Shown here: positions 1 through 15,211 of the stretch, piece by piece
Position numbering within the stretch: position 1 is the stretch's first letter
Layout of the letters: each line of letters starts with the position of its first letter
Virus record (IMG/VR): IMGVR_UViG_3300045988_114868
Location: 1 to 30,147 of that record
Source: a virus
Reading direction: 5' to 3' (one strand)
DNA: 30,147 nt
Notes under the pieces: model-generated
Told to the model about the DNA's origin: nothing
The model's database searches: none
Seen by the model: the letters and a program-made list of their open reading frames with translations, nothing else
Position numbers and translations under genes: made by a program

Positions 1-55
1 CCCGTTGAAAACTATCGGCATCGAACACTACCTCTTCGATCTCGGATACCCGATC
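1..55. repeat. Terminal direct repeat identical to 30093-30147: assembly overlap closing a circular or circularly permuted 30,092-bp genome
   Basis: cccgttgaaaactatcggcatcgaacactacctcttcgatctcggatacccgatc is read at both window ends. An ORF is continuous across the junction. Confidence 0.95.
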
Positions 56-154
56 GAGAAGGTCGCCGAAATCTACGACATAGATGAAGAATCCGTTAGG
101 AAAATCTACCGCGACTATAAGAAATACATCCTACCGACAGGGAGCATCAAATGA
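2..154 (+). CDS. 3' part of a 58-aa junction-spanning ORF that starts at ATG 30070; small HTH-like protein
   Basis: Product MTRKLNDVPLKTIGIEHYLFDLGYPIEKVAEIYDIDEESVRKIYRDYKKYILPTGSIK. The frame is continuous once the 55-bp overlap is collapsed (177 nt total). Stop TGA 152-154 overlaps the next ATG (ATGA). Preferred over track ORF 84..362, whose product is Arg/His-rich and looks off-frame. Confidence 0.6.
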   Translation, partial: PLKTIGIEHYLFDLGYPIEKVAEIYDIDEESVRKIYRDYKKYILPTGSIK

Positions 155-321
155 AAGCGGAAACAAGGAAACAGATCATCAGATGGCATATGGCCGACTT
201 GACCGTCGACGAAATCGCCCCGATCATCCCGCAGTACAGCAAGGACGAGATCAAAGCCGTCATCAACGAACACGAGAGGCAGGTGGAATGGGAACGACTG
301 ATGAGTGGATTGCGTACCTGA
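151..321 (+). CDS. 56-aa hypothetical small protein, possible HTH
   Basis: Product MKAETRKQIIRWHMADLTVDEIAPIIPQYSKDEIKAVINEHERQVEWERLMSGLRT. Below the track length cut-off. SD AGGGAG lies 6 nt upstream, the start couples to the upstream stop by ATGA, and terminator 385-415 follows. Confidence 0.55.
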   Translation: MKAETRKQIIRWHMADLTVDEIAPIIPQYSKDEIKAVINEHERQVEWERLMSGLRT

Positions 322-384
322 TACTCGCACTAACAATCATCATCTCCTACAGGGGGCGATGATCGGGTGAACCTGCCCGATTAC

Positions 385-415
385 GGCGTGTCGCATCAAC
401 GTGGCACGCCTTTTT
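385..415 (+). terminator. 26-nt hairpin GGCGTGTCGCATCAACGTGGCACGCC plus T5; also carries the GGCGTGTCG box
   Basis: 8-bp arms (one G-U) followed by TTTTT. Ends the unit that starts at 28651. Confidence 0.7.
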
Positions 416-416
416 A

Positions 417-425
417 TGATATATT
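417..425 (+). promoter_or_regulatory. Extended -10 promoter TGaTATATT
   Basis: TGnTATnnT shared with 1552, 3766 and 23878. A conserved ATATCAAGCA follows. Confidence 0.55.
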
Positions 426-471
426 AAGCATATCAAGCAAGGAGCTTGACAAACACAAAAAGGAGCAACCA

Positions 472-828
472 ATGAACACCATCACCACAGACGAAATCAA
501 AACCATGATGCACAACATCGACGTACGCTTCGATCGGAAAAGCCACTACGACACCAACGTCATGCCAAAAGGCATGATCTACCACGTCGGCGACCACAAA
601 TACGTCACACTCGACGACTATGCACAAACCTTCGAAGACTACGAATGGGACCACGACGGAGCTGAATGGGCCTGCTACCTCTACACGCTCACCAAAAACA
701 ATCCGGAACGCATCGACTTCTACACTCAGGCATACGCCATCGGAGGCATGGAAACACTCGAAACCATCTACAACAACGTAACCGAAAACGAACTGCAAAC
801 CATCGTCTACCCGATCTACAAGCACTGA
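472..828 (+). CDS. Hypothetical acidic protein, 118 aa
   Basis: ATG 472 has SD AGGAG 6 nt upstream. The track ORF 367..828 begins at a GTG inside the upstream terminator/promoter, so the internal ATG is preferred. Confidence 0.7.
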   Translation: MNTITTDEIKTMMHNIDVRFDRKSHYDTNVMPKGMIYHVGDHKYVTLDDYAQTFEDYEWDHDGAEWACYLYTLTKNNPERIDFYTQAYAIGGMETLETIYNNVTENELQTIVYPIYKH

Positions 829-853
829 CAACCACACGAAAAAGGAGCCAAAA

Positions 854-1447
854 ATGGAGACCAACAACCTCAACAGGAAATTCGCTGAAGTCCTCAACGA
901 AGTCCCGAACTTCAGCACCGACGAAACCGCCAACGCCGGAAGCCGCACCTACAAATACCTCAACCTCGCCACACTCCTCAAGAACATCAAACCGATCTTC
1001 GCGAAACACGGACTCGCATTCACCCAAAAAGTGACCTTCAACGGCACAGGAGACGGACGCCAAATCCTCGGTACCATCGAAACCATCATTTTCGACGACA
1101 CCGATCAGATGACAGTCTGCGAATACCCGTTCTTCGTGACCGGAGACCCCCAACAAGTCGGCAGCGCCATCACCTACGCACGCCGCTACAGCCTCACCAC
1201 CATTCTCGGCATCTTCCCCGACAAGGACGACGACGGAGCATACGCACGGCAGCAGTACGAAACCGCCGACAAGCAAATCGGAGCCGACCAGTACGCCACA
1301 CTTGTCAAAGCAATGGACGCACACTCCATCCCGACAGAAGCACGAGGTGAATTCATCAGCGGCACACTCAGCCGGTCAGTCAAAGGCTGGCGAGGCATCA
1401 CCCAATCCGACATGACGAAACTCATGAATGCTCTCAACAGAATGTAG
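854..1447 (+). CDS. erf: ERF-family single-strand annealing recombinase
   Basis: Core motif QQVGSAITYARRYSLTTILGIFPDKDDDG is typical of ERF proteins. SD AAGGAG precedes the start and terminator 1456-1485 follows. Confidence 0.8.
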   Translation: METNNLNRKFAEVLNEVPNFSTDETANAGSRTYKYLNLATLLKNIKPIFAKHGLAFTQKVTFNGTGDGRQILGTIETIIFDDTDQMTVCEYPFFVTGDPQQVGSAITYARRYSLTTILGIFPDKDDDGAYARQQYETADKQIGADQYATLVKAMDAHSIPTEARGEFISGTLSRSVKGWRGITQSDMTKLMNALNRM

Positions 1448-1455
1448 CAAAGACA

Positions 1456-1485
1456 AGCCCCGATACTCACACGTCGGGGCTTTTA
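1456..1485 (+). terminator. Intrinsic terminator after erf
   Basis: AGCCCCGA/TCGGGGCT stem followed by TTTT. Confidence 0.7.
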
Positions 1486-1519
1486 TCATATCCGGAACAC
1501 GATGAAGGAGCGAAGAAAA

Positions 1520-1560
1520 CGACACGCCGATATACCCCCAACCTTCATAAATGATATAGT
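1520..1560 (+). promoter_or_regulatory. Inverted box CGACACGCC, 26 nt, then extended -10 TGaTATAGT
   Basis: Read directly. Same box-to--10 spacing as at 385-425. Confidence 0.5.
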
Positions 1561-1587
1561 AAGAATATCAACCAAGAAAGGAAGACA

Positions 1588-2490
1588 ATGAAAATCATCA
1601 ACCTATCACAAACAAACAACACCAACGCATGGCTCAACGAACGCATCGGCCGCATCACTGGCACCAAAAGCGGCGGCCTAGCCCTCGAACCACGCACACC
1701 AATCAACATCGAAAAACTCACAGAATCCCGCAACAAAGCACTAGAACAGTCCAGAACAGCGAAAACACCAGAAAAAACCACCGAATACTACCAAAAAGCA
1801 CAAGAATACGACGAACGAATCATCGAAGCCGAAACCCAAAACAAACAACTCAAGACCGGCATCGAATTCTGGAAATTCCTAGCCGAAACACTCGCCGACC
1901 AGCCAGACAACGAACCACCAATGGAACGAGGACACAGACTCGAACCGGAAAACATCCAACTCACAATCCAACAACTCGGATACCAACAAGAAGACTGCGT
2001 CACCGACTGCGGCATCTGGGAAAGCGATGAAGACAATCGAATCGCATGCAGTCCAGACGCCTACGAAAACACCGAAAACCCCACATGGGCCATTGAATGT
2101 AAAAGCCTAGGCTCCGCCTACCACCTGCAAACAGTCATACCATGGATGACACACATTCAAGCCCTTGACGGAACAACCATTCCACCGGAACTGGCTGACA
2201 TGGCCGACCGAATCCTACCGGCGTGCACCTTAGACCAGCAAGCCACCGGATTCGACTTCATACCAGACAAATACAAGGCGCAAGTACTCCAATACTTTGT
2301 TGTATGCGACACACTCAACACCCTCTACTTCAGCCTGTACGACCCACGCGTCTGCAGCGACGCACGACACCAGATAATCCCAGTCAACCGAAAGGACATC
2401 AGAACACTCATCGCCAATCACAAGCAACGACAACTCGCCGCACTCCACCTCGTAGACACCATCTCAAAAATGACAGGAGCCACATTCTGA
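1588..2490 (+). CDS. YqaJ-type (lambda-exonuclease fold) recombination exonuclease, 300 aa
   Basis: N-terminal WLNERIGRITGTKSGGL and a later ECKSL (E-x-K) PD-(D/E)XK-like motif. Adjacent to erf, as in Erf/exonuclease pairs. A Lys/Glu-rich stretch of about 70 aa lies between the N-terminal motif and MERGHRLEPEN. Confidence 0.7.
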   Translation: MKIINLSQTNNTNAWLNERIGRITGTKSGGLALEPRTPINIEKLTESRNKALEQSRTAKTPEKTTEYYQKAQEYDERIIEAETQNKQLKTGIEFWKFLAETLADQPDNEPPMERGHRLEPENIQLTIQQLGYQQEDCVTDCGIWESDEDNRIACSPDAYENTENPTWAIECKSLGSAYHLQTVIPWMTHIQALDGTTIPPELADMADRILPACTLDQQATGFDFIPDKYKAQVLQYFVVCDTLNTLYFSLYDPRVCSDARHQIIPVNRKDIRTLIANHKQRQLAALHLVDTISKMTGATF

Positions 2491-2768
2491 TGAACACCAC
2501 CGCCCTTACCTCAAGCAAAGACATATGGGTACTCTTCGATGGATGCCCCACCTGCCATCCGGAAAGCGCGACATACCTCAACGAATGCCGGACACAAGCA
2601 CAAAAAACACGACGACAACTCCACGTCGTACCATCAGGCAGCCAAACAGCCACACTGATAAGACTCATCGCCCAAAACCAAGGACAACACATCGAATATC
2701 CAATGATCCTCACGGACGGCATCATCCGATACAGCCCACAAGACATCACAGAAAGGAGCCACCAATGA
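2490..2768 (+). CDS. 92-aa CxxC protein, possibly thioredoxin/glutaredoxin-like
   Basis: VLFDGCPTCH motif. ATG 2490 overlaps the upstream stop (TGATG). This is the internal start of track ORF 2223..2768. Confidence 0.5.
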   Translation: MNTTALTSSKDIWVLFDGCPTCHPESATYLNECRTQAQKTRRQLHVVPSGSQTATLIRLIAQNQGQHIEYPMILTDGIIRYSPQDITERSHQ

Positions 2769-3100
2769 AAACAGAATGGTGGACCGCAGTCATCACAGCC
2801 GGACTCACAGCCGGATACGCCACCACGGTAACCCAACTATCACCAGGACCCGGATACGCCTTCAGCAAACTCAGAAAACAACTCACAGCCAAAACTGAAA
2901 ACCAAACCAACGACCTGACAGCCAGCCTCGAAGAACTCGCCTACTGCGGATGGTGCCTCAGCCCATACCTGGCTCTCCCCGCATGGGTAGCGGCCACAAA
3001 AGCTTTCCACATCCACTTCAGCCTCAAATGGATAATCGGACTGGCCGCAGCAACAAGCATTGCCGCCTACTACCGACACCAAGCAGAAAGCAGAATCTAA
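2765..3100 (+). CDS. 111-aa predicted membrane protein
   Basis: Hydrophobic segments WWTAVITAGLTAGYATTV, LSPYLALPAWVAA and WIIGLAAATSIAAYY. ATGA overlap with the upstream gene. Confidence 0.6.
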   Translation: MKTEWWTAVITAGLTAGYATTVTQLSPGPGYAFSKLRKQLTAKTENQTNDLTASLEELAYCGWCLSPYLALPAWVAATKAFHIHFSLKWIIGLAAATSIAAYYRHQAESRI

Positions 3101-3387
3101 TGCGCAGCATCCCACAACGACACGTGATCATGATCCTTCACCTGATCAAGGAACCCATCACCCAAGAACACCTGACAACAATAGCCCCGATGCTCGGCTG
3201 CCGTGACACGCCACAAAGTCTGAGAAGCCGCTTGGTCGAACTCGAACGCGAAGGATACACACACCGCGTCGACAGGACCGGGATCAGCGCCAGAAAACGC
3301 CCCTGCTGGAGATGGCAGCTCACCAAGAAAGGCGAGGAACTCGCACAGGAACTCCTCGACCCCAACACTCCAGACGAAAGGAAATGA
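3100..3387 (+). CDS. 95-aa winged-helix DNA-binding protein
   Basis: LRSRLVELEREGYTHRVDRTG...WRWQLTKKGEEL resembles a recognition helix plus wing. TAATG overlap with the upstream gene. Confidence 0.5.
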   Translation: MRSIPQRHVIMILHLIKEPITQEHLTTIAPMLGCRDTPQSLRSRLVELEREGYTHRVDRTGISARKRPCWRWQLTKKGEELAQELLDPNTPDERK

Positions 3388-3394
3388 GAACACC

Positions 3395-3721
3395 ATGGCA
3401 ACAAAACCATTCACCGTCACCATCGAAGGCAAGGAAATCACAGTACGCCAGAACGCCTACACAGGACTCTTCTACGCCATCCGGAATGACGGCAGGCATA
3501 CTCCGGTCAACTACCGTCTTGTTAAAGCGCAGACTTCCAGCATGCAGCGGCTTAAATATTGGAGGAACCGTTACGGGTACACGCAGTCAGACCTCGCCGA
3601 AAGACTTCACGTGTCCAGTAAAACCATCATCGAGATGTGGGAAAACGGGTTAAGGCACCCGCTCAAGAAATACAGGCAGTTGATCAATGCCGAACTCAGC
3701 TCGGACATATTCCCCGACTGA
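3395..3721 (+). CDS. 108-aa protein with C-terminal XRE/Cro-type helix-turn-helix
   Basis: LKYWRNRYGYTQSDLAERLHVSSKTIIEMWENGLRHP fits the HTH_XRE pattern. Confidence 0.7.
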   Translation: MATKPFTVTIEGKEITVRQNAYTGLFYAIRNDGRHTPVNYRLVKAQTSSMQRLKYWRNRYGYTQSDLAERLHVSSKTIIEMWENGLRHPLKKYRQLINAELSSDIFPD

Positions 3722-3734
3722 TTCTCCCATCAAT

Positions 3735-3760
3735 GGCGTGTCGCATCAACGTGACACGCC
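3735..3760 (+). promoter_or_regulatory. Second copy of the 26-nt hairpin (GGCGTGTCGCATCAACGTGACACGCC), a perfect 8-bp palindromic pair of boxes
   Basis: Differs from 385-410 at one base. No T-tract follows, so it looks more like an operator than a terminator. Confidence 0.55.
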
Positions 3761-3765
3761 ATATA

Positions 3766-3774
3766 TGATATGAT
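3766..3774 (+). promoter_or_regulatory. Extended -10 promoter TGaTATGAT
   Basis: Same architecture and downstream ATATCAAGCA as at 417-440. Confidence 0.55.
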
Positions 3775-3822
3775 AAATATATCAAGCAGGGAACCCACCA
3801 CAACACAAAAAAGGAACCAAAA

Positions 3823-4092
3823 ATGGAAACCGTCAAATACCTCACCACCATCATCAGCCTCATCATGCAACAGCCGAAAATCGGCACCATCCTCGACGAG
3901 GACGGACTCGACCCGGAAATCACCTACGGACGAATCGGCATCAAAGACTACACCGCGTTCATCAACCTCTACGGCCTATTGAACGGCATCGAAAAAGTCG
4001 AAACCACACCAGTCCACGAAATCGACAACGGCATCGGATATGACTTCACCATGACAACCCCGATCACACTACACTTTTTCCATTGGAAGTAG
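3823..4092 (+). CDS. 89-aa hypothetical protein
   Basis: Canonical initiation context aaaaaggaaccaaaaATG, own promoter 3766-3774, terminator 4107-4152. Confidence 0.65.
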   Translation: METVKYLTTIISLIMQQPKIGTILDEDGLDPEITYGRIGIKDYTAFINLYGLLNGIEKVETTPVHEIDNGIGYDFTMTTPITLHFFHWK

Positions 4093-4106
4093 CCTCCAAA
4101 ACATAC

Positions 4107-4152
4107 AAAAACGCCCCACATCCAGCCAAACAAGCCGGACGCGGGGCGTTTT
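4107..4152. terminator. Bidirectional hairpin between convergent genes 3823-4092 (+) and 4168-4467 (-)
   Basis: AAAACGCCCC ... GGGGCGTTTT outer stem. Confidence 0.65.
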
Positions 4153-4167
4153 ACACACCAGGATCAA

Positions 4168-4467
4168 TCAGCGGCTCACACCGGCATAATGCACGCCGAA
4201 CAAACCAGCCACGCCAGAACCAACCAGCGCACAAGCGCCACCGACGACGGCAACCCACGACGGAACACCCGGAACGGCACTCACCAAACTGGCCACCGCA
4301 CCGGCAATTCCCACCAACCCAGATACCAAATACGCCACACGACGCGTCTCAGCATCAAAAGTCGGCACATAATTATCACTGCCATCCGCGCACTCATTCG
4401 TGATCATGGTTCCCGAAGTCGGATCACCAGACAACGAATCATCAACCAACATCACATGCTTAGCCAT
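4168..4467 (-). CDS. 99-aa membrane protein downstream of the endolysin (holin-like or lysis accessory)
   Basis: Two C-terminal hydrophobic segments: AYLVSGLVGIAGAVASLVSAV and WVAVVGGACALVGSGVAGLFGV. ATG 4467 lies 10 nt after GAAAGGA. The track start 4476 is a TTG. Confidence 0.55.
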   Translation of the reverse strand: MAKHVMLVDDSLSGDPTSGTMITNECADGSDNYVPTFDAETRRVAYLVSGLVGIAGAVASLVSAVPGVPSWVAVVGGACALVGSGVAGLFGVHYAGVSR

Positions 4468-4486
4468 AAACAACAAATCCTTTCAA

Positions 4487-5329
4487 TCAGTGAAAAATAA
4501 TACCGTCATTAAGACGCTTCTGGAATTCCTTCACAGCCATGCTCGGAGCAGGACTGATCACACCATCCCCCTCGAACCCATTCATCTCCACAAGGAACCG
4601 ACGAATGAACTCAGGACCCGCATTACGCGGCAGGTCAGTAATGCCGAAACGGTATGACATCCACTCCACCCAATCACTGCCGGAAGTCCCCTCCTCCAAA
4701 CAGGCGATGTTCTGATTCTCGATACACCGAATCTGCCCGGACATGACACCATCGACAGACGTGCCAGCAACCTCCTGAGCCCTACGCATCGTCAAAGGAC
4801 CCCAAGACCCATCAACCTCAAGCTTCGTAACCGACTGCGTCGCAGGCTGCACAGGCACCGGATTCGACGGAGCCACAAACCCCCGAGCCAAACAATCCAA
4901 ACGATCCAGATCATACGAGCCCGGACACTGCGTCGCAGAACAATCACGATGACGAATCAACGGCAAATCACCATACTCCGCCCGAAGATCACGGATAAGC
5001 TCGGCGATCGTCTCATAATCACCATCCGACTGGCGAGGATTGCACTCAATGCCGATACCCATATCATTGCCCTTGGAACCAACACCAACCCCATCCCCGG
5101 CATTCCATGCACGGTCATCAGGGTCCACGATACACGCCACACGGCCAGCCTCAGCCACATAATGCGCGGAAGCACCACGAGACGGATTGCACAAGGTATT
5201 GATGACGCCCTCGAACGTCGGATTCGTATTCGGGTCACCCCACCAATGAATCACAATGAATTTGATACCGTACGGGCGACCACTCGTATAATTCGGACTA
5301 TCAAACTGAGTGATATTTTCATACGACAT
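4487..5329 (-). CDS. Endolysin: N-acetylmuramoyl-L-alanine amidase (Amidase_2/PGRP type) with a C-terminal putative wall-binding region
   Basis: IVIHWWGDP, HYVAEAGRVACIVDPDDRAWNAGDG, GIECNPR and RHRDCSATQCPG (His/His/Cys zinc ligand pattern). ATG 5329 is preceded by AAGGAG. The track N-terminal extension is rejected. Confidence 0.8.
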   Translation of the reverse strand: MSYENITQFDSPNYTSGRPYGIKFIVIHWWGDPNTNPTFEGVINTLCNPSRGASAHYVAEAGRVACIVDPDDRAWNAGDGVGVGSKGNDMGIGIECNPRQSDGDYETIAELIRDLRAEYGDLPLIRHRDCSATQCPGSYDLDRLDCLARGFVAPSNPVPVQPATQSVTKLEVDGSWGPLTMRRAQEVAGTSVDGVMSGQIRCIENQNIACLEEGTSGSDWVEWMSYRFGITDLPRNAGPEFIRRFLVEMNGFEGDGVISPAPSMAVKEFQKRLNDGIIFH

Positions 5330-5342
5330 TTTCTGTCTCCTT

Positions 5343-5534
5343 TCAAACAGTAAACGCATACCAAACAGTATAAAGAAAACGGGCAAAAGCCGGAATCCCG
5401 GTGGCAAGCAGATAACCGCCCACTACCATGACGCCAATAAGAAATGACGACAAAAGAATGAGAACGACGTTCTCGATGAATTCATGGCTCATATCATCCA
5501 GCATACCAAAGCACCCTACGCTAGACTTAATCAT
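5343..5534 (-). CDS. Small two-TM protein upstream of the endolysin (putative holin)
   Basis: VVLILLSSFLIGVMVVGGYLLA plus GIPAFARFLYTVWYAF. Start is uncertain (5534, 5504 or 5492) and none has a clear SD. Confidence 0.5.
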   Translation of the reverse strand: MIKSSVGCFGMLDDMSHEFIENVVLILLSSFLIGVMVVGGYLLATGIPAFARFLYTVWYAFTV

Positions 5535-5879
5535 ATGACCGAACTAATATCATCCATCATCGGACTCGCCGGCATAGCAGTAGGAGGCACCATCACATGG
5601 GTCACCACACGTCGCACCAACCTCACCACCTCCTACCAACATCTCGTAGAAGCACAAGGCGAACTCAAAAAACAAATCGACGCCCAAGACGAAAAAATAG
5701 ACAAACTCATCCGAACACGAGACGCATTACAACACACAAGCGACCTCGAAACCAGCTACATTCGTAAACTAGGCCACTGGCTCTCCGAATTCTGCGAAAT
5801 AGTCGACGATGAATTCCTCTCACGCCACCCGAAACCATCCCTACCAGACGAACTACGAGACCGCATCTGCCCCCTCTAA
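5535..5879 (+). CDS. 114-aa N-terminally membrane-anchored coiled-coil protein, counter-oriented inside the late block
   Basis: MTELISSIIGLAGIAVGGTITWV followed by heptad-like QHLVEAQGELKKQIDAQDEKIDKLIRTRDAL. Alternative start 5484. The antisense track ORFs here look spurious. Confidence 0.6.
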   Translation: MTELISSIIGLAGIAVGGTITWVTTRRTNLTTSYQHLVEAQGELKKQIDAQDEKIDKLIRTRDALQHTSDLETSYIRKLGHWLSEFCEIVDDEFLSRHPKPSLPDELRDRICPL

Positions 5880-5963: not shown

Positions 5964-6863
5964 TTAATACCGTCTGGAAATCGGCCAGCTCACACTACCC
6001 CTACGAGAACCAGTCGAACCGTTAGCACCCCTATTAGTGACCTTAATGGTACCGCCAGTATCCACCATCAACAAGCCAGTAGAACTACCACCATTCTCAA
6101 CGCAAAGCGCAGCCGAAACATCCACCGCGGGGCGACACGCCTGCTTCACCTTATCAGTAAAAGGAACCTCAGCCCACGAGCCGTTATCGATCTGAATACC
6201 GGAAACCTGAACAGTACAAGAATCCGCACCATACAAGAGCGTCAAACTACCATTAAGCCAATTAGTGGAAACCACTTCAAGAGTGTCATGCCAGACACCG
6301 TTCTCCCTCACATACCGGGTGCCGGTAGCTGCCACCAACACCTCCTGCCCGTCAGCTACGGTAAGAGCATTCAACCTATCTGTGTTAGCAACTTCCATCA
6401 GCATGTTCCGATGCAACACAGGAAACACGTCAGAAATAACACCAGCAGTAACATAGGCAAGCACCAAACCGGGAATCGCACTATCGGCAGCTGACTCCGG
6501 ATACACTTTCACCAAGCCACGAGGCACACTCCCCTGTGAATGATTCGGATCCTCCACAATGACCGCGATCTTATAATTGCCAGACGGACCGGGAAGCGTC
6601 ACGGTCTCATCGCTCATAATGGCATAAGTGTAAGCCCCGACACTAGCCCACGGGCTCAATATCCCACAATGAGGTCGGACAGTGACCTTCAACCCGTCGA
6701 TCACACACAACGGGCTCGAAGCCCCATACAACACGCCGGAAACGCAGTTAAAAGCCGTACCATCAGACGGAGCCAGAAACGGGTTAACGACATGCCGAAA
6801 ATTGTCAGCCGTGTAAGACGGAGACCCACCAACAGCAGTCAACGGATGCATGATAATACTCAT
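5964..6863 (-). CDS. 299-aa tail fibre / receptor-binding candidate (structural, function by position)
   Basis: Last gene of the tail module. SD GGAGAG lies 6 nt upstream and minus-strand terminator 5890-5931 follows. Confidence 0.5.
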   Translation of the reverse strand: MSIIMHPLTAVGGSPSYTADNFRHVVNPFLAPSDGTAFNCVSGVLYGASSPLCVIDGLKVTVRPHCGILSPWASVGAYTYAIMSDETVTLPGPSGNYKIAVIVEDPNHSQGSVPRGLVKVYPESAADSAIPGLVLAYVTAGVISDVFPVLHRNMLMEVANTDRLNALTVADGQEVLVAATGTRYVRENGVWHDTLEVVSTNWLNGSLTLLYGADSCTVQVSGIQIDNGSWAEVPFTDKVKQACRPAVDVSAALCVENGGSSTGLLMVDTGGTIKVTNRGANGSTGSRRGSVSWPISRRY

Positions 6864-6866
6864 CAG

Positions 6867-7559
6867 CTACTCTCCAACAGTAGATTTCTTAATATAATTC
6901 TCCTCTATGTTAGCAATCTTTGCAGAAAGACTCTCGACCGTGCCCTTCAACCCATCCACCTCACTCATGCTCTCCTGCGCCAACCGTAAAGCAGCCATAC
7001 TCAACTTCGCATAGTCAACACCGACAGGAACACCATCATCATCATATTCGCAAAAGAAACCAAGACCGGCATCATCCAAATCCTCAGCAAGGAGGCCGAC
7101 AACCGGCTGCGCGTCATCAAGTTTCAAATTCAAATCATCCCTGAACCAATACACGCGCCATTTCACCCGACGGAGAGCATCCAACGGAATGAACCCGTCA
7201 GCATCAGCAACATTCGTCACCGAACACGCCGACGAACAATCACCGCCCAACGTGCCATCATAAAGACAATAAACCGGCTTCCGAGAAGCCGACGAAATCA
7301 TAGCATCAAACACGTTCTGAACACCGGTGCCACCATGAGCTGGCACCACTATCGCACCAGGCCTGCCAACATCGCTCTGACTCACGTCAGTGGCCAACGA
7401 CTCGAAATCACCCTCGACGGCGGCAACACGCCCTCCCAACCGGTTGATGCTCTTACCGATGCTAGCCGTCAACTCCCGCAACTGACGGCGGACCTCCGAA
7501 AACTGGCGTGCGGTAGCATCCACCCCATCAAGCGAAAACCTGAACTTACCTTGCATCAT
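6867..7559 (-). CDS. Tail fibre protein with C-terminal intramolecular-chaperone (Peptidase_S74-like) domain
   Basis: GGTG fibre motif (VPAHGGTGVQN). C-terminal VVGLLAEDLDDAGLGFFCEYDDDGVPVGVDYAKLSMAALRLAQESMSEVDGLKGTVESL matches the S74 chaperone pattern. AGGAGG SD; the second ATG (7556) is equally possible. Confidence 0.65.
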   Translation of the reverse strand: MMQGKFRFSLDGVDATARQFSEVRRQLRELTASIGKSINRLGGRVAAVEGDFESLATDVSQSDVGRPGAIVVPAHGGTGVQNVFDAMISSASRKPVYCLYDGTLGGDCSSACSVTNVADADGFIPLDALRRVKWRVYWFRDDLNLKLDDAQPVVGLLAEDLDDAGLGFFCEYDDDGVPVGVDYAKLSMAALRLAQESMSEVDGLKGTVESLSAKIANIEENYIKKSTVGE

Positions 7560-7565
7560 ATCCTC

Positions 7566-8675
7566 CTACTGCAATACCGGCGTAACAGTCCAAGAACCAC
7601 TGAAATCAATATCATATCCAACGACACGCGCCTCACCATGGTTGAACCCCTCCAAACGTCCACTATCATCAGTGATATCCCACGAGACGACATCACCCGG
7701 ACTCCAATCCCTATAAACAACAGGCGCAGACATCAGATCCAACGTCATGTCGACAGTATTCGTACCATCCTGTAATTGCCGTAACGCGGACATAGCGTGA
7801 GCATCCAACGTGTCCTTCCGTGTAATGCTCTCCGACGCTCGGACCACATATTCAATGACAGGACGGTAAGACTGTCGCACGGTCATCACATCAGAACGCA
7901 ACTGATCCTCACCCGACGTCGACCCCACCGCCACGACCATGTTCGCACCATAACCAGTCGTATAATCCTCCAAAACCTTGAAAGACGTCATCGCACTCTC
8001 ATCAAACGTCGTAACCGGAGTAACGGAACCTATCCTATCTGCAACCGTCAAAACCGGCCGATATCTGCCACCATCGACAGCCAGCCATGACGTGCACCAT
8101 TCCGGACCATTCTGAACGTTCGAAAGGTCCTGAAGGGCACTCAGCAACGTTTTCTCGGAGGACTCTTCATACGTCCTGTCGCGTAGTATTCTACTGGAAG
8201 TCACGTTCATCAGAAGCGTGAACCGATGATCCGTGAGCGTACTCGATACAAGATCCTTCACGATCTCACACTGGTCACGTTTCGAATACGAGTGATCCTT
8301 CACATACACGTGATCAAAATAATGTTCGACGGTCGCCAACGTAAGAGACAGTCCCGAGCCTTGCAGACTACGTTCCCGTTTGACGACGATACCACCCCAT
8401 AATACGGTCAGTTCGCTCACCAAAACGATGGCCGTGCCATACGGGATCGTCGCCTCATTCCAATTAGACGGAATGTTCCGCCACGGAATCATCACCGTCT
8501 CACTCGTCTTTTCCTCGAAACGATACGAAAACTTGGAAACCTGTAAGTCCGGAAACTCTGCCAACACGGTTCCATCGGTCAAAGATACCGAAAGGAATTG
8601 AAACCCGGTCGTAGACCACGATGCGCCACCATCCACGGAACTAGACGAACCAAACCAGTTATCAGCCCAAACCAT
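7566..8675 (-). CDS. Tail-associated lysin-like / baseplate hub protein (Tal N-terminal domain type), 369 aa
   Basis: Position directly after Dit, size typical of a Tal structural domain, SD AAGGAG. Confidence 0.6.
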   Translation of the reverse strand: MVWADNWFGSSSSVDGGASWSTTGFQFLSVSLTDGTVLAEFPDLQVSKFSYRFEEKTSETVMIPWRNIPSNWNEATIPYGTAIVLVSELTVLWGGIVVKRERSLQGSGLSLTLATVEHYFDHVYVKDHSYSKRDQCEIVKDLVSSTLTDHRFTLLMNVTSSRILRDRTYEESSEKTLLSALQDLSNVQNGPEWCTSWLAVDGGRYRPVLTVADRIGSVTPVTTFDESAMTSFKVLEDYTTGYGANMVVAVGSTSGEDQLRSDVMTVRQSYRPVIEYVVRASESITRKDTLDAHAMSALRQLQDGTNTVDMTLDLMSAPVVYRDWSPGDVVSWDITDDSGRLEGFNHGEARVVGYDIDFSGSWTVTPVLQ

Positions 8676-8685
8676 GACATGCTCC

Positions 8686-9576
8686 TTACATGTAAGCCGG
8701 ATAGAAAGAAACCGTCATACGAGCGTCACTCGAATATTCACTCGAACTGAAAGCCCACTCGTTAGACCCAGCAGCAGCCTGACTCCATTCACGTCTGACG
8801 ACATTGCCACGAGCCGGGTCGGACCCGTCAACCAATATCTCATGGTTCATGCCGTTTATCGTCACATAATGGCCGATGCCGAGCCTCATGTCGAAAGCCA
8901 TGACATGCCCGCTCTCGACATGCGATACCTGCGGGTTCACGACAGGGCCATCAATACGAATAAACACCGGACTAGGAGCGTTACCAACGTTCGATAGTAA
9001 GACACGGCCGGATAAGACATCCTCGGACCACATCCAAGCTGATACCGAACCGCTGCACGTCCCGAAACAATAGGGGAGCGTCATACCACCGGACGTGCTC
9101 GGCAACCCCGAAACACCGGACACTAATTCAAGCCCATACATGCACGGATCCAAAGACGTCAAACCGATACTGAAACGAAGCATGTTCACTCCAGCCCATT
9201 TGACCAATGGTGCGGATGCCGACTGCCACACTTGCATTTGAAATCCGACATCCCCAAGCCTTGCGGACAGTCTCATACCGGCAGTGTCCAGAACGCTTTT
9301 AAACGCGGCCCACGCCTTTACGCATGATTCAGTCCACCGGCCGATAATATGACCTTCGATGGTAATGGTGCGACCTTTTAAACGGGGCAGATTACCATAC
9401 CAGCCGTCAGTCATAAGCTTTTCACTGGTTTGCAAAGTCGAACCCACACCGTCGAACAAGCCGGACACGTCCTGGAACGTGACATGCCATTCGCAACCAT
9501 ACGAGTCCACACCGTAGAGTGGAAAATCGTTCAACGTCAACTGAAGGTCACGGGAATCGGGAAAAAACATGCTCAT
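8686..9576 (-). CDS. Distal tail protein (Dit), 296 aa
   Basis: Immediately downstream of the tape measure, as in siphovirus tail-tip modules. Size and position are the only evidence. Confidence 0.6.
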   Translation of the reverse strand: MSMFFPDSRDLQLTLNDFPLYGVDSYGCEWHVTFQDVSGLFDGVGSTLQTSEKLMTDGWYGNLPRLKGRTITIEGHIIGRWTESCVKAWAAFKSVLDTAGMRLSARLGDVGFQMQVWQSASAPLVKWAGVNMLRFSIGLTSLDPCMYGLELVSGVSGLPSTSGGMTLPYCFGTCSGSVSAWMWSEDVLSGRVLLSNVGNAPSPVFIRIDGPVVNPQVSHVESGHVMAFDMRLGIGHYVTINGMNHEILVDGSDPARGNVVRREWSQAAAGSNEWAFSSSEYSSDARMTVSFYPAYM

Positions 9577-9594
9577 AATCCCATCATATCCTTA

Positions 9595-11643
9595 TCACAC
9601 GTAGCAGAAATTGATCATTCGAACTGTTTCACGTGCCGCCATCGTCGGATCGGAAGCATTGACGGTGATCGGAGCGGACACGCGAGGGCCACTATTCTCA
9701 TTCAAAGCCACCGGAGAAGACATTGGAGTCGAGAGAGAGCCTGACAGGGAGACGGGGAGCAGATCCGATACCATGTCCTGTACCGGTCGCACGGCCAAAC
9801 TCTCGTTCATTTCCACACCAACGCCCAAGCCAGCGGGGATCATCTTACCAACCTCGTCACGGAACACTCGTGATGGCGAATGAATGCCAAGAGCGCCCTT
9901 CGCTGCGTTAACTATGCTGGAAGCCGCTCCCTTGACCGCTGCGACGGCATTGCCTATAGCACTCTTGATACCGTTGATCAAACCTTGAATGATGTTATTA
10001 CCAGCGGAAACAAGCCATGATCCGGCCCCGCTGAACGCGCTTTTGATTTTACCTCCGATACCATTGACTGTGTTCAAGACCGCGGTGACACCGTTACGTA
10101 CGGCACTGGTGATACCATTCCAAGCGTTGGAAACGAAACTCTTGACGGAATTCCAAGCATTGGACCAAGTGTTCGAGATCACGCCCATTACCGACGAGAC
10201 GACGCCGGAAACGGCGTTCAACGCGGCCGTCACGTTGGCTTTGATACCATTCCAGACCGTCGAGACAAGATTGCCTATGGCATCCCAGACAGAGTTCCAG
10301 TCGCCTTGCACGCCAGCCAATACGACGGAGATGATGGCGTTGATGACGTTCATCACAGTGGAAACGATCGTCTGAATGTGTGGAAAGACCGCGTTGATAA
10401 CACCTTGGATCGCGTTGGCCCACACGGTGAATTGAGCTTGCAAGGCCGGTAGGACAGCGTTGAATACTGCAGCCATGTTATTGATAACCGGGGTGATAGT
10501 GCTTATGATGGTCGCACCGAGCTGGGTGAGGTTCGCGACCAGTGAACCCAATACCGGCATGAACGTTTGGAAAGCCGCGTTCAGGATCGGCATGATCGCA
10601 CTGCCAAGATTCTGTAAAGCCTGCATGAACGGTTTCAAAGCCGGTAATAGTTGACTGGTGAACACTTGCCCGACCGGAGCGAAAGAAGACTGGACCACGC
10701 TACCAACCTGCTGCAAGGCTGGCATCATCGACGACGTCATGCTTTTGAAAGCCTGAGGCAGACTGCCGATACCCTCGGCAAGCATGCTGATCCCTTGAGT
10801 GGCGGGCCCTTTGAACGAATCCAATATTTGCATGCCGACGTTCACGACGGAAGCTTCCAGATTACCCATCGCACCTTCGATGGTTTGCGTGCTGGTAGCG
10901 GCTTCCTTGGCCGCATCGGTCATACCCAGGTCCATGACGGCCTTGTTGAATTCCTCGGCGGTGATCTCACCTTTGGCCATCGCGTCACGGAAGTCACCGG
11001 TGTAGGCACCGTTTTTCTTCATGGCTTCCTGTAGTTTGCCTGAAGCGCCCGGGATCGCATCGCTTAACTGGTTCCAGTTTTCAGTGGTGAGTTTACCTGC
11101 GCCTGCTGTTTGGGTCAATACCATGCCAACGCTTTTGAACGTGTCTGCGTTACCGCCTGCGACCGCGTTGAGGTTACCGGCTGCTTCTGCTAGGTTCGCG
11201 TAATTGTTGACGCCGTTCGCAGCTAATTGTGCGGTGGTGTTGCGAATGTCGGACAGGTTGTACACGGTTTCGTCCGCGTATTTCTGCGTACTGGCGGTAA
11301 GTTGGTCTATCGTGCTTGTGTCTAGGCCTGCGAAAGACAGTGTGCTGGCGAATTTTTGTGCGGAATCGGAGGCTTCGATGATGTCATCGCTGAGGTTGCC
11401 TATGGCGTCTACGGCCATGCTGATTCCGGTGGACACGAGACCGCCGACGGCTCCTGCGATGGCTGAAAACTTGCCTAGTCCGCTAGATGATTTGTTAGAG
11501 GCTTTGTCCATGTCGTCCATGGAGTCGGAAGCTTGGCGTGCGGATGTTTCGATTTGGTGGCTGCCGGTTTGGATGGTTTTGACGCCGTTTTCCCAGTCGC
11601 TGGTGTTGATTTCGGCGTCGAGTGTGAGTGTGGAGTCAGCCAT
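9595..11643 (-). CDS. Tail tape measure protein, 682 aa
   Basis: Ala/Gly/Ser/Asn-rich with periodic Trp/Asn repeats (VWNGIKANV, TWSNAWNSVKSFVSNAWNGITSAV). GIHSPSRVFRDEVGKMIP motif is typical of TP901-family tape measures. Confidence 0.85.
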   Translation of the reverse strand: MADSTLTLDAEINTSDWENGVKTIQTGSHQIETSARQASDSMDDMDKASNKSSSGLGKFSAIAGAVGGLVSTGISMAVDAIGNLSDDIIEASDSAQKFASTLSFAGLDTSTIDQLTASTQKYADETVYNLSDIRNTTAQLAANGVNNYANLAEAAGNLNAVAGGNADTFKSVGMVLTQTAGAGKLTTENWNQLSDAIPGASGKLQEAMKKNGAYTGDFRDAMAKGEITAEEFNKAVMDLGMTDAAKEAATSTQTIEGAMGNLEASVVNVGMQILDSFKGPATQGISMLAEGIGSLPQAFKSMTSSMMPALQQVGSVVQSSFAPVGQVFTSQLLPALKPFMQALQNLGSAIMPILNAAFQTFMPVLGSLVANLTQLGATIISTITPVINNMAAVFNAVLPALQAQFTVWANAIQGVINAVFPHIQTIVSTVMNVINAIISVVLAGVQGDWNSVWDAIGNLVSTVWNGIKANVTAALNAVSGVVSSVMGVISNTWSNAWNSVKSFVSNAWNGITSAVRNGVTAVLNTVNGIGGKIKSAFSGAGSWLVSAGNNIIQGLINGIKSAIGNAVAAVKGAASSIVNAAKGALGIHSPSRVFRDEVGKMIPAGLGVGVEMNESLAVRPVQDMVSDLLPVSLSGSLSTPMSSPVALNENSGPRVSAPITVNASDPTMAARETVRMINFCYV

Positions 11644-11973
11644 TTATCGTTCCTTTCCGAGTTCGTTTATGATGCGGCTGATTTTTTGGTCTCCGTGTTT
11701 GGTGAATGCGGCTGTTAGGCATTCGAAGGTTAGTCGGTATTGTTCGGCTAGTTGGATTTGGTGTTGGTGGCGGCCTTCTTTGATTAGGGCGAGCATCAGG
11801 TTTGGTGTCAGTTTGTTTTCCAATGCGTCGTGGATGGCCTCCCACCCGTATAGGTTGCCGAGTTCGGCGAGGATGCGGATGCTGGGGGAAGCGGGTTGTT
11901 TTGTTTCCTGTTGTTTGTATGTTTGCATCCGCTGTTTTTCGGCGGGGGTGAGGAGGCTATCCCATGAGCGCAT
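11644..11973 (-). CDS. Second tail assembly chaperone ORF (T-like), 109 aa
   Basis: Sits between the G-like ORF and the tape measure. Same reading frame as 11980..12330, separated by TGA plus two codons. Confidence 0.6.
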   Translation of the reverse strand: MRSWDSLLTPAEKQRMQTYKQQETKQPASPSIRILAELGNLYGWEAIHDALENKLTPNLMLALIKEGRHQHQIQLAEQYRLTFECLTAAFTKHGDQKISRIINELGKER

Positions 11974-11979
11974 TTGTTG

Positions 11980-12330
11980 TCAGCCTTTGATGTCGAGGGT
12001 GAGGTTTTCGGCCATAAGTTTGCAGAGGGCGGTCATCGCTTGATAGTAGGCGAGGTCGCTGCGTTGTTTGGTTTGTGTCATCCATTCGTGGAAGGTGTTG
12101 TTTGGGGTCATGAGGTCGGCGACGAGTGGGAAGATGATGTTTTCTGCGGTGTCGAGTGTTTTTTTGGTCATTTCGCCGGTGGAGAGTTTGTCGAGTGCGT
12201 CGGCGTTGTCAAGGATGGTGAGCATGTCTTTTGAGCCGAGTGGGCGCATGGTGTAGGTGGTGCCGTCGAGTTTGATGGTGAGTTGGCGGAAGGATTTGCG
12301 GGTGTCTATGGTTAGGGTTGGTGTGGTCAT
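11980..12330 (-). CDS. Tail assembly chaperone (G-like), 116 aa
   Basis: Position between the major tail protein and the tape measure; acidic small protein. Confidence 0.65.
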   Translation of the reverse strand: MTTPTLTIDTRKSFRQLTIKLDGTTYTMRPLGSKDMLTILDNADALDKLSTGEMTKKTLDTAENIIFPLVADLMTPNNTFHEWMTQTKQRSDLAYYQAMTALCKLMAENLTLDIKG

Positions 12331-12392
12331 TTGTGTTCCTTTAGCGTGGTATTATTGGTGTTGGCTCTTTTATGCCATTGTGTTGACGGATT

Positions 12393-12435
12393 AGCCCATC
12401 ATCGTATTGTAACGGTGGTGGGCTTTTTCTGTTTT
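12393..12435 (+). terminator. Hairpin plus T-tract oriented for the plus strand, inside the minus-strand late operon
   Basis: AGCCCAUCAUCG/CGGUGGUGGGCU gives 12 bp with two G-U pairs on the plus strand (C-A mismatches on the minus strand), followed by TTTTCTGTTTT. Confidence 0.55.
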
Positions 12436-12437
12436 GA

Positions 12438-13310
12438 TTACTTCTGTTTGGGGGTTAGGTCTGCGGCCTGTTCGGCGGTGGGGACGGTACCCTGTGCGTT
12501 GATGCGGACGGTGGCTTGTGCGCTACCGGATTTGAAGGCGATGGAGCTGATGCCGGCTTTCTTGGCGGTGAGGGTCCAAGTGCCGTCACCGTTGTTGACT
12601 ACGGTGGAAACTCCGGCTTCTGGGTTTTCTACGGTGATGGTGCCGGTGGCTCCGTTCGGTAGGGCGGTCACGGTGATTTTCACTGGTTCGTTCACTTTGC
12701 AGGTGACGTTGGATGGGGTGGCGGTGAGACTGGTGATGGCGTTTTCCGACGGTTTGATGGTTCCGGTGGTTTCGTCGTAGTAGCTTGGCGTGTCGAGGTT
12801 GAGTTCGCCCATGACGACTGCGCCTTCGGGGCTGGCGGTCATGGTGCCGGTGAGAGTGACGACGAATGGGTCGCTGAGGCTGATTTTGAATTCACCTCCG
12901 GCGCTGATGAGGGCTTGCGGGATGCGGAAGTCCTGTGCGCTGGACTGGCCGTCGCACACGTTGTGGATGATGATGTCTCGCGGCGTGTTGGAGACGCATT
13001 CGTTGCCGCCGAATCGTACCTGACCGGTTTCGCCGAGGTCTCCGCCGATGACGCGTTTGAATTTTGCGTTGTGGTAGAGTTCGGGGAACAGCATGCCGAG
13101 GAAACGGACGCTGGGGCAGATGACGTTGAGTTCGAAGCTCATTTCATCGTAACTGCCGTTCGGTACTTTGATGGTGCCGGACTGGCTGGCGATTTCGGTG
13201 GTGCTTGGAGTGAGGGTAAGCGTTCCTACTTCATCCTGAACATAGTCGGGTGGGATGACCATGTCGTCGATGTAGACGGTTTTCTTGCCGATGAGTGGAT
13301 AGGATGCCAT
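12438..13310 (-). CDS. Major tail protein with C-terminal Ig-like (Big_2) domain
   Basis: C-terminal ITSLTATPSNVTCKVNEPVKITVTALPNGATGTITVENPEAGVSTVVNNGDGTWTLTAKKAGISSIAFKSG fits Big_2. Position follows the neck genes. Confidence 0.8.
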   Translation of the reverse strand: MASYPLIGKKTVYIDDMVIPPDYVQDEVGTLTLTPSTTEIASQSGTIKVPNGSYDEMSFELNVICPSVRFLGMLFPELYHNAKFKRVIGGDLGETGQVRFGGNECVSNTPRDIIIHNVCDGQSSAQDFRIPQALISAGGEFKISLSDPFVVTLTGTMTASPEGAVVMGELNLDTPSYYDETTGTIKPSENAITSLTATPSNVTCKVNEPVKITVTALPNGATGTITVENPEAGVSTVVNNGDGTWTLTAKKAGISSIAFKSGSAQATVRINAQGTVPTAEQAADLTPKQK

Positions 13311-13368
13311 TTTTTTCCTTTCGGTTGAAGCGTCCGGTTTGACTGTGGTGTATTATGCCGTTTTCATT

Positions 13369-13794
13369 TTACAGTGTTGCCGAATCGAGTTTGTAGTCGA
13401 TTTGAAAGCGGATGCTTTTCACCCAGTGTCCTTCGTGGTCGATGGCGTCCAAGTCGATTGCGGTGGCTGGATGAGTGCGGATGCTTTCGTAGGTGATGTC
13501 AGTGATTGGCTGGCAGGTGAGCCGGCAGTAGTGGTGGAATGTGTTGTTGATGAGGTTGAGGAGTCTGAGCATGAGTCGGCCTTGTGTAAGGACGTCTTCG
13601 TGGCGGCTACTGATGGTGATCTGGTCCGTGTAGAGGTCGCCGTTGATGTCGACCGTGTTCGCGTTGACCCAGATGCCTTCCGTGCTGGTGACCGTACCGG
13701 TGTCGAGGATTGGGCTGGTACCGAAGAAGAGGTTTTGGCCGTAAATGCCGTAGCCTTCGTTTTGGAGGGCCATGCATACTGCTAGGTCTATCAT
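13369..13794 (-). CDS. Tail terminator / tail completion protein (SPP1 gp17-like position)
   Basis: Synteny only: directly upstream of the major tail protein gene. Confidence 0.55.
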   Translation of the reverse strand: MIDLAVCMALQNEGYGIYGQNLFFGTSPILDTGTVTSTEGIWVNANTVDINGDLYTDQITISSRHEDVLTQGRLMLRLLNLINNTFHHYCRLTCQPITDITYESIRTHPATAIDLDAIDHEGHWVKSIRFQIDYKLDSATL

Positions 13795-13803
13795 GTGTCG
13801 TCC

Positions 13804-15138: not shown

Positions 15139-15159
15139 TTTTCCTCCGGGGAAATGAAT

Positions 15160-15191
15160 AGGTCCTACCGTAAATTGTAACGGTAGGACCT
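15160..15191. terminator. Perfect 11-bp hairpin after the capsid/collagen-like genes
   Basis: AGGTCCTACCG-N10-CGGTAGGACCT in the 73-nt gap between 15138 and 15212. Confidence 0.55.
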
Positions 15192-15211
15192 AATTGTTTG
15201 TTGGCTGGCTG

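Follow-up and report, generated by a model that had tools for sequence, protein, structure and literature searches.

Genome organisation and copies of the box

We analysed positions 1 to 30,147 of the IMG/VR virus record IMGVR_UViG_3300045988_114868 (hereafter the window), which represent the genome of a siphophage (30,147 bp, GC content 53.8%). The plus-strand arm (23944-30147, running on at 1-5879) encodes a dUTPase, a DUF1064 protein, a replication initiator (HTH_36 + Phg_2220_C), a DnaC/IstB-like loader, a DUF3310 protein, an ERF recombinase, a YqaJ-type exonuclease, a small winged-helix protein and an XRE protein. The minus-strand arm (5964-23790) encodes an Xis-like helix-turn-helix (HTH) protein, a PASTA-domain membrane protein, Ant, SSB, terminase, portal, a protease-capsid fusion, a tape measure protein and tail proteins. 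Our subject is a short repeated element, the 8-mer GGCGTGTC (the box), which stands at all promoters of the plus-strand arm and whose extended form is identical to a binding site described for the actinobacterial regulator WhiA.

The box occurs 12 times over both strands of the window, at 385, 3735, 12787, 17940, 23857, 26692 and 28571 on the plus strand and at 1521, 3205, 3753, 6134 and 27605 on the minus strand, whereas dinucleotide-preserving shuffles gave a mean of 1.5 copies and a maximum of 5. An earlier reading made from the sequence alone (the sequence-only reading) had listed ten copies; all ten are real, but those at 6134 (minus) and 17940 (plus) had been overlooked. Its count of eight intergenic copies holds, now as eight out of 12, with intergenic DNA making up 12.9% of the window (binomial P = 2e-5). 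The 9-mer form of the box was found 9 times against 0.33 expected, and the 10-mer CGGCGTGTCG 6 times against 0.088 expected, all six at promoters. In the four copies within coding sequence the flanking C and/or G is missing. Of these, the copies at 6134, 12787 and 17940 have no orthologue in relatives and therefore look like chance occurrences. The fourth (3205-3212, minus strand) lies in the MarR/PadR-like winged-helix gene (3100-3387), where it codes for Asp-Thr-Pro. It is kept in 27 relatives, a conservation that is confounded by coding constraint, and no -10 lies downstream of it; it is doubtful as a functional site.

Architecture of the box promoters

Upstream of all seven transcription units on the plus strand lie a box and a -10 hexamer of the form TAnnnT, the latter with TGn in front of it at four of them. 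The claims of the sequence-only reading that every plus-strand promoter has a box, that TGnTAnnnT is present at four and that a canonical -35 is missing were thus borne out. The units, several of which are bracketed by terminators, encode the dUTPase and DUF1064 protein, a structured RNA together with the replication initiator, the DnaC-like loader, three small proteins, the ERF recombinase, an exonuclease-to-XRE operon and a distal operon.

Three architectures can be distinguished by the orientation of the box and the distance from the end of the 8-mer to the hexamer. At P23857, P26692 and P28571 the box is in forward orientation, ends 16 nt before the hexamer and itself occupies the -35 position. 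Here the 10-bp boxes lie at 23856-23865 (in the divergent region, with the extended -10 TGATATCGT at 23878-23886), at 26691-26700 (TATACT at 26716-26721) and at 28570-28579 (TATAGT at 28595-28600, the box being located just past a terminator at 28529-28559). At P385 and P3735 the box is likewise forward, but it is accompanied by a complementary arm and lies 27 and 26 nt, respectively, from the hexamer. The P385 box (384-393) has its GACAC core on the template strand and is followed by the extended -10 TGATATATT at 417-425 (hexamer 420-425). The P3735 box (3735-3742) and its complementary arm (3753-3760) form a single element after the stop codon of the XRE gene, fused to the promoter with its extended -10 TGATATGAT at 3766-3774. 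In the third architecture the box is inverted at 26-27 nt. This applies to P1521 of the exonuclease operon, where CGACACGCCG is read on the plus strand at 1520-1529, downstream of the ERF terminator and 26 nt upstream of the -10 (extended -10 TGATATAGT, 1552-1560), and to the minus-strand box at 27604-27613, which lies 27 nt upstream of TAACAT (27640-27645) and is followed by the gene of the DnaC-like loader (ATG 27675). At 385, 3735, 1521 and 27605, the box is followed by 3 nt and then by a poor -35 position.

The sequence-only reading had recognised two classes of spacing, and these remain, although its distances have to be corrected from 15 to 16 nt for the short class and from 26, 25 and 26 nt to 27, 26 and 26 nt for the long one. 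Its statement that the classes are one helical turn apart is approximate only, since relatives show 15-18 nt and 25-28 nt. It had also seen no clear -10 at 27605, where TAACAT is in fact present. With regard to the sequence downstream of the -10, the motif it had described, ATATCAAGCA, starts at 430 and 3779 rather than at 428 and 3778, and at 1565 only ATATCAA matches (ATATCAACCA); its TCAGGCAAGGA at 28609 is correct.

On the minus strand, neither of the two promoters has a box in promoter position. The canonical promoter of the Xis-like HTH gene, TTGCAA-17-TATAAT (23798-23826), leaves 7 nt up to the ATG (23790), so that the mRNA of this gene is probably leaderless. The second consists of a -10 only (TATAAT, 21221-21216), located directly past a bidirectional terminator (21236-21263) and 7 nt before the TerS ATG (21208); the TerS transcript is probably leaderless as well. 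The leftward operon with its canonical -35 and -10, and the late operon with its -10 only, are outside box control.

Conservation of the box in relatives and in a sister clade

The relatives examined are IMG/VR loci and fall into clade A, with an ERF identity of at least 81% (35 loci), and its sister clade B, with about 74% (45 loci). All 35 clade A loci keep the box, with 3-9 boxes per 12-20 kb, whereas 44 of the 45 clade B loci have 0-1 boxes and one (L057) has 3. When orthologous promoters were anchored only on the -10 and the downstream sequence, the box proved to be the best-conserved upstream element, with variable flanks. It was found at the fixed distance of 16 nt in 28/28 distinct orthologues of P26692, in 21/22 of P23857 and, within one mismatch, in about 40/41 of P28571, and the inverted box of P1521 was found at 25-28 nt in nearly all of 35 distinct orthologous promoters. 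Variants in the relatives keep the GTGTC core, while positions 1-3 drift (GGA, GGT, AGC, GGG).

Clade B promoters have the same TGTGATATAAT -10, but there it is paired with -35 hexamers (TTGCAA, TTGCAT or TTGCCT). The single box kept there, GCGTGTCG, lies 4 nt upstream of the -35 at the P385 orthologue. A variant box in clade B was considered and rejected, because the enriched words CGGTATCG and CGGCGTAT sit in conserved coding sequence and not in promoters. The boxes of clade A are tied to a specific right-hand gene module (23944-30089). Outside these clades, the Bifidobacterium asteroides phages BlindBasel1 (L001:2226-2290) and BlindUri1 (L002:9820-9890) carry one conserved GGCGTGTCG-N16-TTGACA-N17-TACTAT. 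The presence of this arrangement in both cultured B. asteroides phages suggests that WhiA-type sites may be more widespread in Bifidobacterium phages.

The palindromic copies are probable terminator hairpins

The box at 385 is palindromic, like that at 3735/3753, its right arm being GGCACGCC at 403-410. On the plus strand, terminator scan, folding and covariation all point to a hairpin at 385-410, GGCGTGTCGC-AUCAAC-GUGGCACGCC, followed by UUUUUAU. The predicted energies are -18.8 kcal/mol on the plus and -12.7 on the minus strand for the 385 hairpin, and -21.7 and -17.8 kcal/mol, respectively, for that at 3735-3760, which makes both comparably stable to the other terminators of the genome (-16.4 to -17.5 kcal/mol). 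The two hairpins are located 23 and 14 nt past stop codons. The 3' tail is weaker at 3735, where only AUAUAUGA is present, and relatives average 4.2 U in 8 nt.

We compared 38 distinct box palindromes from relatives, with arms of 8 bp. The arm cells comprised 269 Watson-Crick, 30 G.T, 3 A.C and 2 other combinations, so that 99% pair on the plus strand when G.U is allowed. Double compensatory changes were seen at pair 1, at pair 3 (two different variants) and at pair 7, and pair 9 covaries too. The excess of G.T over A.C implies that the pairing works on the plus strand only. The left arm has a perfect GTGTC in 35/38 palindromes, the right arm a perfect GACAC in 7/38. These palindromes consist of one good box and a complementary arm that completes a terminator, and not of two half-sites for a dimer. 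Both 385-410 and 3735-3760 thus have a stable stem past a stop codon, a U-rich tail and plus-strand covariation, and 385-410 is probably the intrinsic terminator of the upstream operon, fused to P385. An operator for a dimeric phage repressor of the CI/Cro/Xre type, as which the palindrome noted at 3735 could also be read, was rejected: five of the seven promoters have a single half-site, the right arm is usually imperfect and the arms covary as base pairs in a plus-strand RNA stem. Concerted evolution by cassette conversion was rejected too, the loop identity being 5.9/10 within genomes and 5.8/10 between them.

In their GC-rich stems past stop codons and U-rich 3' sequence, these two elements resemble other intrinsic terminators that overlap the next promoter. 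They differ in that the 5' arm of the phage hairpin is at the same time a consensus transcription-factor site, and in that the U-tract, weak at 3735, is the A/T-rich extended -10 region of the following promoter.

The box matches the site of WhiA

The reverse complement of the 10-bp box, CGACACGCCG, agrees at 10/10 positions with the mycobacterial WhiA motif (phage consensus cGGCGTGTCg). In Mycobacterium tuberculosis, the motif obtained for WhiA by chromatin immunoprecipitation sequencing and by in-vitro IDAP-seq is GACACGCC, and immunoprecipitation of WhiB2 gave the same motif (PMC13473873). The earlier motif of Minch et al. is CGACACGCCGn, and that of M. smegmatis WhiB2 is cGACACGc (PMC13473873). 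Six promoter sites of the window are exact 10-mers and thus contain the GACAC core within the extended GACACGCC consensus, which is a mycobacterial one. The chance of a 10/10 match is 2/4^10 per motif, and a match of this kind to a published site makes a host factor far likelier than a phage factor. We consider it likely that the box is a WhiA-type site bound by host WhiA.

The arrangement of the sites also conforms to what has been described for this protein. WhiA is a monomer that recognises an asymmetric site irrespective of its orientation and can act as an activator or as a repressor (PMC3781837); the phage boxes are found forward at 16 and at 26-27 nt and inverted at 25-28 nt. Cryo-electron microscopy places WhiB on sigma-A region 4, with the N-terminal domain of WhiA bound to WhiB and its sigma4-like C-terminal HTH reading GACAC (PMC10243135). 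The long linker of WhiA has been proposed to permit binding to either strand and at variable spacing, and the -35 of the native sepX promoter is non-canonical (PMC10243135). The holoenzyme by itself does not transcribe from the M. tuberculosis dnaE1, dnaB and ftsZ promoters, which WhiA and WhiB2 activate, and the regulon of these two factors includes recA, ruvABC and uvrD2. Its functional classes are those of the box-controlled phage genes, namely replication and recombination. No WhiA, WhiB (4-Cys) or sigma domain was found in the phage proteins with Pfam and PHROGs, nor any sigma or WhiA similarity of the winged-helix, XRE and 145-aa proteins in sequence searches of the PDB. A phage-encoded WhiB, WhiA or sigma factor was accordingly rejected, since neither a protein with four Cys nor a corresponding domain in Pfam or PHROGs was found.

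Family and predicted host

Megablast found no cultured phage that is close at the nucleotide level, and the nearest cultured phages are the two B. asteroides phages, with a TerL identity of 49%. A homologue of the winged-helix protein is labelled Namikivirus ikeda (genus Namikivirus, family Umezonoviridae), and via this taxon name the phage is assigned, at the level of sequence similarity, to Umezonoviridae. This family is VC_18 of Nishijima et al. 2022, an abundant and highly prevalent family of human-gut phages. The supplement of that study gives 113 genomes with a mean length of 30,099 bp and a GC content of 0.546, describes VC_18 as not lysogenic and names Bifidobacterium (and Coprococcus) as hosts from CRISPR spacers. 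Portal homologues were confined to contigs of about 29-30 kb, with none on a long bacterial contig, which agrees with the published label of the family as not lysogenic. Alignment of ERF to species-representative genomes, aimed at prophages, gave no match, and alignment of TerL gave only matches of at most 45% identity, spread over many phyla. Of the actinobacteria, all except one have WhiA; Bifidobacteriales have WhiB2 as well (PMC4255298).

A candidate mechanism and its alternatives

The model that we favour, as fairly probable, is that host WhiA/WhiB2 controls the early regulon at sigma-A-type promoters by activation. The box promoters would be of sigma-A type, with a good and often extended -10 and no usable -35, but with one consensus WhiA site instead. 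By analogy with sepX, dnaE1, dnaB and ftsZ, host WhiB2 would sit on sigma-A region 4 and the N-terminal domain of WhiA would bind WhiB2, while the flexibly linked, sigma4-like C-terminal HTH of WhiA would read the box in either orientation and so recruit RNA polymerase. Phage replication and recombination genes would then be switched on along with the host WhiA/WhiB2 regulon, and at 385 and 3735 the WhiA site would double as the 5' arm of the terminator hairpin of the preceding operon. Activation is favoured because the box replaces the -35 hexamers of the sister clade and stands in fixed register with the -10, and because clade B and the B. asteroides phages have their only box upstream of a -35, as at sepX. 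If the probability of WhiA binding is divided between its possible outcomes, about three quarters falls to activation with WhiB2 and about one quarter to occlusion or titration.

A number of points weigh against this model. The host Bifidobacterium is a published CRISPR-spacer prediction for the family and not for this genome, the extended motif is extrapolated from Mycobacterium while the Streptomyces motif is only GACAC, and the tie between the boxes and the right-hand gene module leaves room for a phage-encoded binder. Promoters lacking a -35 are common in actinobacteria, and the four promoters with an extended -10 could fire unaided, so that an activator is perhaps not needed there. At P23857, P26692 and P28571 the box coincides with the -35 position instead of lying upstream of it as at sepX, a geometry that could equally mean occlusion, i.e. 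repression, and that is covered by none of the published WhiA structures. WhiA represses about as often as it activates in S. venezuelae (PMC3781837), and either factor can block access of RNA polymerase. The last three points, the unaided extended -10 promoters among them, also speak for a different outcome of WhiA binding, which we hold to be possible but rather unlikely: WhiA might occlude RNA polymerase until the activity of WhiA/WhiB2 changes, which would amount to a host-state-gated dormancy needing no repressor, or the sites might titrate WhiA, replicating phage DNA drawing it off the division genes of the host. The anti-repressor-like Ant gene in a phage that has no recognisable repressor/integrase pair is in line with such a role, as is the combination of a published non-lysogenic label with high prevalence. 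It is countered by the fixed register with the -10 and the replaced -35 hexamers, both of which suggest that the box helps to recruit the polymerase. A phage that does not integrate would moreover pay a high price if an essential, ever-present host factor constitutively repressed all its replication and recombination promoters, and titration does not require promoter-locked positions.

Less probable still is that a phage-encoded protein recognises the box, the identity with the WhiA site being mimicry or coincidence. The candidates are the MarR/PadR-like winged-helix protein (3100-3387), the XRE protein (3395-3721), the Xis-like HTH protein (23617-23790), the replication initiator (26857-27600) and a clade-specific basic 145-aa protein (29284-29721). 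The XRE gene adjoins the 3735 palindrome, one box lies inside the winged-helix gene, boxes occur only in the clade with the right-hand module, and the basic coiled-coil 145-aa protein is found in 35/35 relatives with boxes but not in the sister clade. However, chance is an unlikely cause of agreement at 10/10 positions with a host-factor site that was defined by experiment, the phage encodes no sigma4- or WhiA-like domain, and the winged-helix, XRE and Xis-like proteins also occur in the box-less clade B, so that they do not co-occur with the box as cognate regulators of a dimeric operator. The sequence-only reading had proposed these three for electrophoretic mobility shift assays. The 95-aa winged-helix protein has a MarR/PadR-type fold (pLDDT 83; Foldseek matches MepR, Rv0880 and PadR) and would be a dimer, the XRE protein is an ordinary Xre HTH, and the Xis-like protein is of the HTH_17/excisionase (Xis/MerR) type; as binders of the box they are disfavoured. 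MarR/PadR and Xre types normally read dyads, yet at five of the seven promoters one asymmetric site stands alone, and in the palindromes the second arm is imperfect and the centre spacing is 18 bp. Of the earlier proposal of one phage-encoded or host factor, a single sequence-specific factor is plausible for all plus-strand units, whereas a phage origin of that factor is unlikely. We give very little credence to the box being no protein site at all, but having arisen as a side effect of GC-rich terminator hairpins or through repeated terminator-promoter cassettes that spread by recombination. The copies at 385 and 3735 are indeed arms of stable plus-strand hairpins that covary like RNA stems, the DnaC terminator (28529-28554) holds the related CGACACG, and GGCGTGTCGCATCA(A)CGT recurs in the 385 and 3735 loops and at the start of 28571. 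Nevertheless, five of the seven promoter boxes are single and outside any hairpin and still form the best-conserved upstream element at fixed register, other terminators in the genome lack a box, the sequence equals a known protein site, and the loops, being no more alike within genomes than between them (5.9 vs 5.8 of 10), indicate that no cassette conversion is ongoing. The least credible explanation, to our minds a very remote one, is a -35 element of an alternative or phage-modified sigma factor, also raised in the sequence-only reading. It would account for the fixed position, 16-nt spacing and orientation at three promoters, but not for the inverted boxes at 1521 and 27605, nor for those located 10 nt further upstream at 385 and 3735, i.e. 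two orientations and three spacing classes in all. The same TGnTATAnT -10 is used with a TTGCAA -35 in the sister clade, and TTGCAA is found at the leftward promoter of the window too; the pairing of this -10 type with TTGCAA hexamers points to sigma-A as the holoenzyme's sigma factor, and no sigma or anti-sigma domain is encoded.

Beyond activation by WhiA/WhiB2 as such, a more far-reaching proposal can be put forward tentatively, at somewhat less than even confidence. An entire lineage within the Umezonoviridae may have swapped its early -35 elements for host WhiA/WhiB2 sites, so that the genes would fire only with an active iron-sulphur (Fe-S)-dependent WhiB2-WhiA-sigma-A complex.

Other cis-elements and genes

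Besides the box, a second cis-element was noticed, a dyad that spans the -10 and +1 at 417-435, 1552-1570, 3766-3784 and 23878-23897. Its sequence is TGATAT-N7-ATATCA in clade A, whereas clade B (loci L039-L083) has TGTGATATA-N5-TATATCACA, and TATCA starts 5 nt past the -10 hexamer in 55/98 and 88/114 extended -10 promoters. The dyad could be the operator of a common phage regulator (XRE, MarR/PadR-like or Xis-like) or reflect a preference of the initiation region; these three proteins are better candidates for a dyad common to both clades than for the box. At P385 the initial transcribed element ATATCA is followed by a leader hairpin, TCAAGC-AAGGA-GCTTGA (433-449; the two together at 430-449, plus strand). 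Hairpins of the form TCAAGC-N5-GCTTGA lie within a few nt of the predicted +1 here and in P3735-class relatives, and are absent at 3779 and 1565 in the window. The stem is conserved in both clades, with compensatory variants in P3735-class relatives (AATC/GATT, AGGC/GCCT, AAAC/GTTT), while the purine-rich pentaloops vary (AAGGA, AGAAA, AGGAA, GGAAT). Rfam and ARAGORN gave no known RNA family for the leaders; the hairpin could serve to stabilise the mRNA or to bind a protein in the manner of boxB.

The box promoter at 26691-26721 is followed by a structured RNA of about 115 nt (26722-26839, plus strand) that has not been described before and is conserved in 28 distinct relatives though three different open reading frames (ORFs) follow it. 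It comprises two hairpins with 33 predicted pairs, 8 of which show compensatory changes, and a loop-loop pseudoknot between CTCCTAC (26745-26751) and GTAGGAG (26805-26811) that is kept in 15/16 sequences by 10 different complementary variants. Its 3' end is a strong stem with a U-tract just before the ATG of the replication initiator (26857). No Rfam, tRNA or tmRNA match was obtained; the element could be a small RNA, an attenuator or a replication-control RNA. The region of about 1.6 kb directly upstream of the structured RNA and the initiator gene (25041-26690) has no convincing conserved ORF. Short AT-rich repeats occur in it (CTAGATATCG, two copies near 25195-25225; GATAGATAGATATAGATAGATATAGATAAGAGAAAGAAAGAAAGA near 25640-25690), as does CCGACCGACCGACCGAC near 26435, and the region may be the replication origin.

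With regard to the remaining genes, neither an endolysin nor an integrase was identified among the ORFs scanned with Pfam or PHROGs. The N-terminus of ORF 5484-5879 is transmembrane-like. An early leftward gene (22747-23586, minus strand) encodes a membrane-anchored protein with a PASTA domain and is absent from all relatives examined. PASTA is a peptidoglycan-binding module of host penicillin-binding proteins and Ser/Thr kinases, and the protein may serve superinfection exclusion or cell-wall sensing.

Comparison with known systems and implications

The closest counterparts of the box promoters are the sigma-A promoters controlled by WhiA and WhiB (WhiB2), such as sepX, ftsZ and ftsW of S. 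venezuelae and dnaE1, dnaB and ftsZ of M. tuberculosis. The site sequence is identical, and both sets have an asymmetric site in either orientation at variable distance, a good -10 with a poor -35, and targets in replication and recombination; sepX is leaderless, as is predicted for the leftward transcript of the phage. In contrast, the phage sites make up a whole rightward regulon, three of them overlap the -35, two are built into terminator hairpins, and all are putative WhiA sites. In the middle promoters of phage T4, a host sigma-70-type -10 is combined with a MotA box that replaces the -35 at near-fixed distance, and MotA and AsiA together bring about 'sigma appropriation'. Here as there, a box in place of the -35 defines a temporal class of phage genes. 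However, T4 encodes both the box-binding activator and the sigma remodeller whereas the present phage encodes neither, its box matches a host-factor site and the orientation is mixed. No match to T4-type MotA/AsiA families was found in Pfam or PHROGs, and the resemblance is functional only. Key promoters are wired to a host global regulator in alphaproteobacterial phages with CtrA boxes and in temperate phages with LexA boxes, which lets phage development keep step with the physiology of the host. The regulator, the host phylum and the architecture are different in those cases, and all early promoters of the present phage have the site in place of a -35. Mycobacteriophage L5 has many copies of a short asymmetric site, the gp71 operators or 'stoperators', one of which overlaps a -35. 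Unlike the boxes, which are promoter-locked and of mixed orientation in a phage with no repressor or integrase, the L5 sites are bound by a phage repressor, are oriented with transcription and occur also within operons.

Host global-regulator sites in phage promoters are thus known, and phage WhiB2-like genes are common. Many actinophages carry such genes, for reasons that are still unclear (PMC13013590). We found no prior report of the motif or of WhiA sites organising a phage regulon in the literature, the coverage of which was incomplete; if our model is correct, this would be the first phage regulon run by WhiA, as far as the searchable literature shows. A virus that plugs its early programme into WhiA/WhiB2 would also bear on the WhiB2-like genes of actinophages (PMC13013590).

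In Actinobacteria, pathogens and probiotic bifidobacteria among them, division and replication are regulated by WhiA and WhiB2, which are essential and conserved, and the WhiA site has so far been defined experimentally only in Streptomyces and Mycobacterium. Seven promoter-locked sites in dozens of gut phages would, if the model holds, be comparative evidence for the extended CGACACGCCG specificity in Bifidobacteriales, and they would provide compact WhiA-responsive promoters (about 45 bp) in three geometries, including one with the site overlapping the -35. For the phage itself, control by WhiA/WhiB2 would mean a repressor-free coupling of infection to the growth, cell cycle and redox state of the host, and it would give a prevalent, non-lysogenic family of gut phages a mechanism by which to follow the growth state of its host.

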